DNA of 32,000 nt, taken from Candidatus Helarchaeota ASGARD archaeon Hel_GB_B. GTDB lineage: Archaea > Asgardarchaeota > Lokiarchaeia > Helarchaeales > HEL-GB-B. Position 1 is the first letter of the stretch, and each line of letters opens with the position of its first letter. The stretch covers positions 6,447 to 38,446 of the forward strand of contig SUPR01000024.1 in assembly GCA_005191425.1 (NCBI GenBank), in the 5' to 3' direction. Positions 6,411 through 12,014 of this stretch are shown piece by piece. The notes under the pieces were generated by a model. That model worked only from the letters and a program-made list of their open reading frames with translations. It searched no databases and was not told the DNA's origin. A program made the translations under genes and the position numbers.

Positions 6411-7541
6411 ATGTTAGATAAAGAAGAGATATTAAAGTTAGATAAATTAAATATATCGAAAGATATTTACAAATTACCGGAAAGTATGATCCAAGCAAGA
6501 AATAGTTGCAAGACGATAGATTTTTTATCGATAAAACAGATAATAAACTCAAGAGAATTTCCCAATTTTCCTAATTGTTGTATAATATGTGGAATGGGAG
6601 GTTCGGCGATTAGTGGAGACATTTTACACGATTATTTAGCAATGAAAGTAAAGTTTCCGATTATTACATTAAGAAATTATGAGCTCCCAACATATGTAAA
6701 TGAAAATTCATTAGTTTTTATAATAAGTTATTCAGGAAATACAGAAGAAACATTAAATGCCTTAAAGGAGTCATTAGAAAGGGGAGCATTAATAATAGGG
6801 ATTTCTTCAGGAGGAAAATTGAAGGAATTTTGTAAGAAATTACAAATACCGTTAATATTAGTACCTGCAAATTTAGCGCCAAGAGCTGCTTTGGGATATT
6901 TATTTACGTCATTATTAATAACTTTACAAGAGCTTGGATTAATAGAACCGATTGATGACGAAATTTCAGAAATGATAGAAGTAATGAAGGTATTAAGAGA
7001 GGAAATTTCAATAAAAGTTCCATTAGAAAATAATATTGCAAAACAAATAGCACTTAAATGTATCAATAATATTCCAGTAATTTATATAGATAATAATTAT
7101 AAGTCAGTAGCTAAAAGATTTAAATCGCAAATTAATGAAAACAGTAAGATGCCATGTAAAATTGATGAGTTTCCAGAATTAAATCATAATGAAATTGTAG
7201 GTTGGGAATGCTCACTTGAAATGTCTAAAAAATTTATATGTTTATTATTAAGGACTTCTAATGAGATAGAGCCAATTAAAACAAGGATAGAATTGACCAA
7301 ATCGATTATTCTTAAGGAGAAATTAATAGATGTAATAGAGATTTACGCTAGAGGCGAATCCAAATTAAGTCAAATTTTTTCGTTAATTCTTATTGGCGAT
7401 TATATCAGTTTATATTTAGCTATACTAAATAATCAAGACCCATCACCTACAGAATCAATTGCTCGTTTAAAGACCGAACTAAAAAATCAATTAAATCTTG
7501 TCCAGAAAATTGAAAATGACCTATTTGCAAAAGAAGCATAG
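6411..7541 (+). CDS. Bifunctional phosphoglucose/phosphomannose isomerase (SIS fold)
   Basis: Motifs CGMGGSAISGD, SYSGNTEETL, RFKSQINENSK and FPELNHNEIVGW. Confidence 0.92.
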   Translation: MLDKEEILKLDKLNISKDIYKLPESMIQARNSCKTIDFLSIKQIINSREFPNFPNCCIICGMGGSAISGDILHDYLAMKVKFPIITLRNYELPTYVNENSLVFIISYSGNTEETLNALKESLERGALIIGISSGGKLKEFCKKLQIPLILVPANLAPRAALGYLFTSLLITLQELGLIEPIDDEISEMIEVMKVLREEISIKVPLENNIAKQIALKCINNIPVIYIDNNYKSVAKRFKSQINENSKMPCKIDEFPELNHNEIVGWECSLEMSKKFICLLLRTSNEIEPIKTRIELTKSIILKEKLIDVIEIYARGESKLSQIFSLILIGDYISLYLAILNNQDPSPTESIARLKTELKNQLNLVQKIENDLFAKEA

Positions 7542-9873: not shown

Positions 9874-10209
9874 ATGATGGTTAGAAATATAGGTATAGGA
9901 GTCCCACCTCCAAAGAGAGAGTGTAACGACCCGAAATGCCCATTTCATGGCAATTTATCAATTAGAGGACGTATTTTTGAAGGAAAAATAGTAAGTACAA
10001 AAATGAGGAACACAGTTGTTGTAAGACGTGATTATCTTCATTATTTAAAAAAGTATAAGAGATATGAAAAAAGACATGGTACAATTTCAGCTCATTTACC
10101 TCAATGCTTTGAAAACATTGAAGTGGGCGATATTGTAAAAATTGCTGAATGCAGACCTTTAAGTAAAACTATTTCATATGTAGTAGTACAAATTAAATCT
10201 AAAGAGTAA
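9874..10209 (+). CDS. rps17: 30S ribosomal protein uS17
   Basis: [36 protein letters not shown]. Confidence 0.97.
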
Positions 10210-10405
10210 TTTTAAATTTAGTCTTAGTATTAATATAATTAGCTTGGGTTCTTATTTTATTTTTATTTAAATTTATCTTACTTTTTCTGAAAAAATATTT
10301 ATAAATTATTTGATTTAGATTTTTAAGTAAAAATATATTCAAATATGAATAATAATTTATTACAATTATAAAATAATATAGATAACATTTTTAATGGAGA
10401 TAAAA

Positions 10406-11275
10406 ATGGCGAGCAAACCAAAAACAATCTTTGAGCGATTAGAAGAGCGTATGGAAAAATTAGAACAAATTATTAATACAATTGTTCCTGGAATTTTGGA
10501 CCAAGTTATTCCTGCATTGGATAAAGTAAAAGAAGATCTTCCAGCTTCTATTGGGCCTAATTTAATGAATTTTGCAGATATGATAGGAGAACAGATAGAA
10601 AATGTTTCGAAATCGGTTTCTAGTATTTCTTCTCCAGGTGGAGGAGGACCTGTAAATGTTGATTTATCTGAAGTTACTGCATCTTTGAATAAAATATTAG
10701 ATAGTTTTAATGTATTATTAAAAGGTTTTGACCAAGTAAATTCAAAAATAGACAATTTAACCAGTGAAATTTCATTATTAAAGAACGATGTTAATCAAAT
10801 CAAAGCAATAAGTAGTTCAGTAGCACCAGTAACACAAACTGCTCCACCAGTAAATGTAAGACCTCAAGTCACTGCCCAACCAGCAACACCAGCTCCTGCA
10901 AGCTTTCAAGCCACTGCGCAACCTAAACCTACACCAACAATTAAAGCAGCTCCAGCACCTACTATTACTCCGCAAGAAAAAATTCCAACGATTACCACTG
11001 AATCATCAGTAGTTCCAACAGAGGTTTTTGACCTTTTTGATTCAATTACTGAGAAACTTAAATCCGGAATGTTGGCACAACAAATGGCACAACACATGGA
11101 ACAAGTCCGTGATAAAATCGTAAATATATATAAATGGCACCCTACCTTATATGAATTAGCGTCTCAGGCAAGAAAACTTAAAAAAGCAGGAGTTGAAGAC
11201 CCAGTCGATGCTGATACATATCAATTATTACTAGAAAAAGTACAAGAGTGGAAACAAAGAATAAAAACAGGCTAA
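10406..11275 (+). CDS. Hypothetical protein: helical/coiled-coil N-terminus, Pro/Ala/Thr-rich linker, C-terminal helical bundle (possibly Vps28-CTD-like)
   Basis: Long ORF; ATG 10406 follows GGAG (alternative start 10394). Architecture is read from amino-acid composition; the fold is inferred. Confidence 0.8.
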   Translation: MASKPKTIFERLEERMEKLEQIINTIVPGILDQVIPALDKVKEDLPASIGPNLMNFADMIGEQIENVSKSVSSISSPGGGGPVNVDLSEVTASLNKILDSFNVLLKGFDQVNSKIDNLTSEISLLKNDVNQIKAISSSVAPVTQTAPPVNVRPQVTAQPATPAPASFQATAQPKPTPTIKAAPAPTITPQEKIPTITTESSVVPTEVFDLFDSITEKLKSGMLAQQMAQHMEQVRDKIVNIYKWHPTLYELASQARKLKKAGVEDPVDADTYQLLLEKVQEWKQRIKTG

Positions 11276-11588
11276 TTTCCTTTTTATCAATTTTTAAAAT
11301 TACCAGATCAATTTTCATTCAAGATATTTTAAATTAGAAAAAATTTTTTAATCATCATATTTTTTAATTCCTATCACAAGAAAATTTTTAAACAAATTTT
11401 CAAGTTAAATTTTTACTACAAATCACAATGATTTGTAAAAAAAATAAATGAGACGATTCATTCTTATCGTGACATTAATAAAAAATCACATATAATTTCA
11501 TATAAATTTAATTTATTAAAATTAGACATAATAATAAAAATATAAAGATAGAAAGATACAAAATAAAATAAATAAAAGGTTGAATATC

Positions 11589-12014
11589 ATGGGTAAAGCG
11601 CGTATAAGACGAAGCGGTGCGTTATATTTACCATACATTACCAAAGGAATTCAAAATGAGACTGTATTAAAATGTAGCGATAATAGTGGCGGTAAGTTTT
11701 TGCGAGTAATTTCAGTGATAGGATATAAAGGACGTTTAAATAAGATACCGAAAGCATCTATTGGACAAATGGTGGTAGTATCAGTAATTAAAGGTAGCCC
11801 AGAATTACGGAGACAGGTTGTCCGTGCAATAATTATAAGACAAAAAAAAGCATATAGGCGTCCAAATGGTCAATGGGTAAAGTTTGAGGACAATGCAGCA
11901 GTAATTGTAAACCCAAATGGAGATCCAAAAGGCTCAGAAATAAGAGGCGCAGTAGCTAAAGAAGCTGCAGAAAGATGGCCCAGATTGTCTGCTGTAGCAT
12001 CAATGGTTGTTTAG
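11589..12014 (+). CDS. rpl14: 50S ribosomal protein uL14
   Basis: LKCSDNSGGK, FEDNAAVIV, GSEIRGAVAKEAAERWPR; likely ATG at 11589. Confidence 0.97.
   Translation: MGKARIRRSGALYLPYITKGIQNETVLKCSDNSGGKFLRVISVIGYKGRLNKIPKASIGQMVVVSVIKGSPELRRQVVRAIIIRQKKAYRRPNGQWVKFEDNAAVIVNPNGDPKGSEIRGAVAKEAAERWPRLSAVASMVV

Follow-up and report, generated by a model that had tools for sequence, protein, structure and literature searches.

Why does a gene for a protein of 289 amino acids (aa) stand between rps17 and rpl14 in the ribosomal gene cluster of an Asgard archaeon, and what may its product do? We analyzed a window of 32,000 nt, i.e., positions 6,447 to 38,446 (forward strand) of contig SUPR01000024.1 in the genome of Candidatus Helarchaeota archaeon Hel_GB_B (assembly GCA_005191425.1); coordinates given without a contig are positions in this window. 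The open reading frame (ORF) in question occupies 10406..11275 on the + strand, stop codon included, and its product combines a coiled-coil part, a linker and a C-terminal bundle that resembles the C-terminal domain (CTD, or Vps28-C) of Vps28. In the endosomal sorting complexes that are required for transport (ESCRT), the Vps28 tail connects ESCRT-I with ESCRT-II/III. Eukaryotes have their closest known relatives in the Asgard archaea. With moderate confidence, we read the gene as vertically conserved and its product as a coiled-coil carrier of a Vps28-C-type bundle, the partner of which is most likely an ESCRT component.

Predicted fold of the C-terminal domain

The last 89 residues of the protein (residues 205-293, 11006..11272, + strand) form the domain that carries this reading. 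Using an alignment of 101 tail sequences (alignment A2), we obtained a model of an up-down four-helix bundle with a predicted local distance difference test score (pLDDT) of 95 and a predicted template modeling score (pTM) of 0.86. The family consensus in the same alignment includes one invariant Trp and the motifs HP.L.E, AR.LK, and L..KI..WK. When the model was compared to the PDB with Foldseek, the Vps28-CTD took ranks 1, 2, 3, and 5 (2j9w, 2g3k, 2j9v), with query-normalized template modeling scores (TMq) of 0.70-0.73, root-mean-square deviations (rmsd) of 2.0-2.6 A and probabilities of 0.97-1.00. VIA-align also placed the Vps28-CTD as the top solved match, ahead of generic and designed bundles. 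Among Swiss-Prot models, the Vps28 proteins of animals, plants, and an amoeba (Dictyostelium) matched the tail at template modeling (TM) scores of 0.66-0.75, and in the ESM Atlas a eukaryotic VPS28 cluster matched it at TM 0.74. Foldseek aligned residues 130-211 of human VPS28 to residues 7-84 of the tail model at 12% identity, a span that takes in the segments matched by eye in the preliminary description; identity of the tail to the eukaryotic domains of known structure (PDB 2J9U, 2J9V, and 2G3K from yeast; 2J9W from Xenopus) is 10-14%. The preliminary description of this locus had guessed by eye at a Vps28-CTD-like four-helix bundle. The guess is supported by a confident model for which the Vps28-CTD is the top match by both Foldseek and VIA-align, and the predicted structure is indeed an up-down bundle of this kind.

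Conservation of the gene at the S17-L14 junction

The 289-aa protein has five database homologs, which are 51-60% identical to it over 99% of its length. Invariant blocks are found at the N-terminus (K.PKT.FERLE.R), in the segment P.SIGPNLM.FADMIGEQI, and in the last 90 residues, with a variable middle. The NCBI names of the homologs are Helarchaeota, Lokiarchaeota, or Promethearchaeota archaeon, the close ones being Helarchaeota. The order S17-ORF-L14, with similar spacers and with Ribosomal_S17 and Ribosomal_L14 domains on the two sides, was found in two contigs picked by identity (L001 and L002), and whole-genome searches recovered it in four genomes (G001, G002, G005, and G006) that represent all three families of the order (f1, f2, and f3). 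S17 adjoins L14 in five genomes from the sister families f4 and f5, where no more than approximately 80 nt separate the aligned parts. This ORF is a genuine protein-coding gene, because it has homologs at 51-60% identity, invariant blocks at both ends, and conserved synteny. The survey of the S17-L14 interval across Asgard genomes, with the insertion in f1-f3 and its absence in the five f4/f5 genomes, therefore indicates an order-level feature that has been vertically kept. The gene would have been inserted between rps17 and rpl14 as a unit of its own, followed by vertical conservation in one Asgard order.

Possible kinship with Vps28 at the sequence level

We compared the tail family to 14 canonical Asgard Vps28 proteins (alignment A3) using hhalign. 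Helix 3, the loop, and helix 4 were aligned in structural register (score 20.5, E 0.0023-0.0089), and this score was reached by 1 of 100 column permutations. In this region both tails follow the pattern L-K..P...D......L......W, i.e., the likeness to the canonical Asgard tail consists of a shared helix 3-loop-helix 4 pattern and a weak profile-profile match. We consider the match suggestive, not proof, and we infer homology of the bundle to Vps28-C. A profile search of the PDB with the tail returned 2j9w weakly (E 0.74). PDB sequence searches with the protein gave nothing significant; matches to a "CAP repeat" and to YopM were rejected as repeat artefacts that contain no passing stretch.

The rest of the protein is another matter. 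Comparison of its N-terminal half (N-half) to that of the 14 canonical proteins gave no signal (hhalign score 10.7, E 0.45, with 45 of 60 permutations as high), and no ESCRT-I headpiece was found among the Foldseek matches of the full model. The N-half of eukaryotic Vps28 is a steadiness-box hairpin, whereas here it is a long coiled-coil or amphipathic region, and the gene is not among ESCRT genes. This genome (G000) also encodes a canonical Vps28 of 319 aa on contig C128 (PF03997 at 61.7 bits), flanked by the UEV-Vps23 and Vps22 genes, the latter closely followed by Vps25; it was not found by the profile of the present family at E<=0.01. It has the Vps28 N-half and the ESCRT neighbors, whereas the 289-aa protein has neither. 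Because Pfam VPS28 is not matched, the N-half is unlike that of Vps28 and a canonical Vps28 is encoded elsewhere in the genome, we regard the protein as no orthologue of Vps28; instead, it bears a module that resembles Vps28-C. Sequence-level membership of the Vps28 family, toward which the preliminary alignment to human VPS28 had pointed, is not borne out.

Spread of the tail and published Vps28-C fusions

When 1.84 billion representatives were searched with a profile, 112 cluster representatives of the family were identified at E<=1e-3. The tail profile matches 107 of these 112, usually after a P/T/A/S/Q-rich stretch; between the end of the match and the C-terminus there are a median of 0 and at most 9 residues. 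Genomes of families f2 and f3 contain 3-11 family matches each, and short members of approximately 230 aa are encoded in the Lokiarchaeia genomes G024 and G040. The genome studied here encodes one paralog, of 416 aa, in an unrelated gene context (contig C121:19919-21169 of G000; L027:523-1773). Its tail is the same (E 6e-27), it likewise has a P/T/S/A linker, and its coiled coil is repetitive and much longer.

The tail is found on other scaffolds as well. By sequence, the tail profile matches DUF11/Ig-like proteins of 720 aa at 7e-10. By shape, the same fold appears in Promethearchaeota clusters of the ESM Atlas together with DUF11, TrmB, and PCI/DDRGK/E3_UFM1_ligase domains (TM 0.70-0.79). 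The 720-aa proteins that end in the tail are encoded at three loci of Lokiarchaeia genomes (L010, L011, and L014 in G032, G026, and G010), and at each of them the adjoining gene, on the opposite strand, encodes approximately 370 aa with a basic K/T-rich C-terminus and without a Pfam match. A gelsolin-like identity of this neighbor, suggested by eye, was dropped since Pfam finds nothing.

Such arrangements have precedents. A preprint by Liu et al. (2020; 10.1101/2020.10.19.343400) describes many Asgard fusions of Vps28 or Vps23 domains with adaptin/COPI appendage domains and with UFM1 ligase. According to Makarova et al. (2024; PMC10936438), Vps28-C is paired in many Asgard multidomain proteins with adaptin appendage, longin, TPR, Ig-like, and HTH/PCI domains, and the authors suggest that such proteins may reach ESCRT-II without ESCRT-I. 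The present protein is like the published ones in the Asgard-specific use of the bundle on a non-Vps28 scaffold, and the shared partners of the tail are Ig-like/DUF11, HTH/TrmB, and PCI/UFM1-ligase domains. Therefore, the novelty that the preliminary description had attached to an ESCRT-adaptor-like protein has to be given up, as Asgard multidomain proteins with Vps28-C were already reported in the two works. In the text consulted from Liu et al. (2020) and Makarova et al. (2024), we found neither the plain carrier made of a coiled coil and a P/T linker nor its location at the junction of rps17 and rpl14, and the asCOG entries covered include no such family. Because the same tail sits on DUF11/Ig-like proteins (by sequence) and on TrmB and PCI/UFM1-ligase proteins (by shape), the 289-aa protein probably belongs with the published Asgard proteins that re-use the Vps28-C module.

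Architecture of the carrier and a convergent bundle as the alternative

The preliminary description had divided the protein into an amphipathic or coiled-coil N-half, a P/A/T/Q-rich linker and a C-terminal domain, and all three are present. The full-length AlphaFold model was built on 6 sequences; the residue ranges 12-76, 92-141, 142-204, and 205-293 are counted from the ATG at 10394. The N-terminal amphipathic helical region (residues 12-76, 10427..10621, + strand; model pLDDT ~65-75) is delineated by its amphipathic moment and by invariant columns, as it holds the invariant FERLE.R and the near-invariant P.SIGPNLM.FADMIGEQI (approximately 10541-10597). A variable Gly/Ser-rich break (residues 77-91, 10622..10666, + strand), with pLDDT <50 at residues 80-86, separates it from a second long helix (residues 92-141, 10667..10816, + strand; model pLDDT ~65-75), whose periodicity makes it a likely coiled coil. 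The first helix is strongly amphipathic, and the second is heptad-periodic. The linker that follows (residues 142-204, 10817..11005, + strand) is predicted to be disordered on the basis of pLDDT of 31-39, its composition, and poor conservation; its 63 residues include P14, T12, A11, and Q6. No transmembrane segment is predicted in the 289-aa protein (maximum Kyte-Doolittle 19-residue mean 0.97). The invariant N-terminal FERLEERM..L (10430-10465, residues 13-24) is, by eye, partly similar to the MIM1 motif of ESCRT-III (L..R[LM]..L); the flanking acidic/basic positions are missing and we do not claim this motif.

For the whole protein and its halves, Pfam returned just sub-threshold coiled-coil noise (Baculo_PEP_C, NPV_P10), plus DUF1706 at E 0.0024. 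The N-half had no usable match in an ESM Atlas feature search, and shape searches with it gave generic coiled coils alone.

Several results speak against an ESCRT-linked carrier. Foldseek E-values for the tail are no better than 0.1-1 (0.1-0.7 for the Vps28-CTD entries of the PDB). The hhalign probability for the tail against canonical Asgard Vps28 is just 4.5-12.6%. Pfam VPS28 is not matched by the protein or its halves (E<=10), and it is absent from the families listed for the 101 tails, for nine full-length relatives, and for the paralog. The gene lies outside the ESCRT cluster, which, with its complete Vps28, is on a different contig (C128). Finally, searches with Pfam models and with the Vps22 of this genome found no Vps22/Vps25 in three f2 genomes (82-88% complete) in which the tail family is present.

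These results leave room for an alternative, in which convergence alone makes the tail, a generic up-down four-helix bundle, look like Vps28-C. The protein would then have no ESCRT link and would be a structural coiled-coil protein or one of membrane/lipid surfaces, with amphipathic helices of the phasin, perilipin, or apolipoprotein type. Such a protein would be consistent with the marginal sequence evidence for Vps28 and with a gene that is never beside ESCRT genes in the loci examined; furthermore, the N-half has weak below-cut-off Pfam matches to Apolipoprotein, DUF948, DUF1664, and NPV_P10 and resembles Phasin_2 weakly by shape (TM 0.31-0.41). However, convergence on a generic bundle does not readily account for the Vps28-CTD being the top named match in five independent libraries, with a lead of 2 Z units, full-domain cover, and the lowest rmsd. 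In addition, the helices of the Asgard Vps28 tail in which the sole sequence signal falls are the matching ones, and the partners to which this tail is fused had already been published for Vps28-C. We consider convergence somewhat unlikely.

If the protein is a carrier of a Vps28-C-type bundle, its parts suggest a simple division of labor. The amphipathic or coiled-coil N-half, which probably self-associates, would oligomerize or lie on a surface; the flexible linker of ~60 residues would enable the bundle to extend to a partner and dock onto it; and this partner would most likely be an ESCRT component, by analogy with the Vps28 tail.

Genomic setting, spacers and a possible role in translation or secretion

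The window has a low G+C content (~29%) and contains an archaeal ribosomal cluster in the order S19, L22, S3, L29, Rpp29, S17, the extra ORF, L14, L24, S4e, L5, and onward. The upstream neighbor is rps17 (uS17; 9874..10209, + strand), identified as an ORF and by Pfam Ribosomal_S17 on the syntenic genes; the downstream neighbor is rpl14 (uL14; 11589..12014, + strand), identified as an ORF and by synteny. The ORF in its longer form extends over 10394-11275 (+ strand) and has ATG codons at 10394 and 10406. A Shine-Dalgarno-like GGAG at 10397-10400, within the AT-rich spacer of 196 nt (10210..10405, + strand), stands 6-9 nt ahead of the second ATG, and the homologs begin with MA.KPKT; because of these two features, we place the start at ATG 10406, which gives 289 aa. 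An ORF of this length with gaps of about 200 and 310 nt had been described in the preliminary account, and the measured values agree: 196 nt separate the S17 stop (10209) from the ORF, and 313 nt separate the ORF from the L14 ATG at 11589 (304 nt if the TTG at 11580 is taken).

Both spacers contain conserved elements. The upstream motif GGAGATAAAAATGGC is largely kept in 3 of 4 aligned relatives, and this 196-nt spacer may contain a promoter. In the 313-nt spacer, an alignment of four relatives revealed a conserved non-coding block (11337..11421, + strand) that comprises GAAAAAATTTTTTAATCATCAT, GAAAATTTTTAAACAAATTTTC, and TTTTTACTACAA, approximately 170 nt upstream of rpl14. It is kept among relatives whose ORF proteins share just 51-60% identity. 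No Rfam family was found in either spacer flanking the ORF. The block probably serves the L14 operon as its promoter/leader.

The fixed place in this cluster could reflect function, in which case the protein would serve the translation/secretion machinery, e.g., as a ribosome- or SecY-associated scaffold. Insertions in ribosomal clusters are rarely tolerated, and this one has kept its position between rps17 and rpl14, upstream of spc-type genes and secY, in three families. Conversely, the long AT-rich spacers on both sides and the conserved downstream block suggest a separate transcription unit, paralogs of the same architecture are found in unrelated contexts, and the sister families f4 and f5 do without the insertion. 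Pfam, PDB sequence, and shape searches found no likeness to any ribosome- or translocon-binding family. Taken together, a function of this kind is improbable.

ESCRT genes in related genomes and the likely partner of the tail

The three f2 genomes encode ESCRT-III and Vps4. From Pfam alone it appeared that f2 and f3 have no Vps28; this was rejected because an Asgard-specific Vps28 profile finds N-half-only Vps28 genes (147-159 aa) in the ESCRT clusters of f2. One such cluster, in G002 (L060, G002:C243:33500-43500), contains two ESCRT-III genes on either side of an 817-aa HerA-like ATPase gene, together with Vps4, UEV-Vps23, an N-half-only Vps28 of 156 aa, and a further gene of 136 aa; no Vps22/Vps25 was found in the G002 genome. 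A statement in Makarova et al. (2024; PMC10936438) that the halves of Vps28 can be separate genes is consistent with these findings. A different arrangement is seen in a 272-aa protein (L059:1884-2702, G004:C125): its residues 29-88, close to the N-terminus, form a Vps28-C segment of canonical type (E 1e-7 with the Asgard Vps28 profile), and approximately 180 residues without a Pfam match follow.

It is highly improbable that the 289-aa protein is a divergent true Vps28, i.e., an ESCRT-I subunit standing in for the canonical one or present as its duplicate: its layout of helical N-half, linker, and four-helix tail is superficially Vps28-like, and the N-half-only Vps28 of the f2 clusters might receive a tail in trans, but the N-half is unlike the Vps28 N-half/steadiness box (hhalign and permutations, above), Pfam VPS28 is unmatched, and this genome already has a complete canonical Vps28 by UEV-Vps23, Vps22, and Vps25.

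As to the partner of a carried Vps28-C-type bundle, the presence of the tail family in f2 genomes without detected Vps22/Vps25 implies that ESCRT-II cannot be the sole one. Co-folding of the tail (A2) with the Vps22 of this genome (A4) gave a score below the mark, which speaks neither for nor against binding. By analogy with Vps28, the protein may function as an ESCRT adaptor. If so, a partnership with ESCRT-III is no less likely than one with ESCRT-II, because the tail family can do without a detectable ESCRT-II. For the structure PDB 2G3K, the primary paper reportedly describes a Vps28-CTD surface needed for Vps20 recruitment. A more elaborate scenario, which we regard as very improbable, is that an oligomeric carrier encoded in the ribosomal cluster supplies the Vps28 tail in trans, links ESCRT-III/Vps4 remodeling to translation/secretion, and substitutes for the missing tail where Vps28 consists of the N-half only and ESCRT-II is not found.

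Implications

For the order, the conserved insertion offers a convenient synapomorphy, at an S17-L14 junction that is rigid otherwise. For the proteins that re-use the Vps28 tail, the gene would add a well-defined and easily expressed member: a simple coiled-coil carrier whose orthologs occur throughout the order and whose domain is modeled with very high confidence. Since the family persists in genomes without detected ESCRT-II, the true partner of the tail, be it ESCRT-II, ESCRT-III, or something different, is directly testable.
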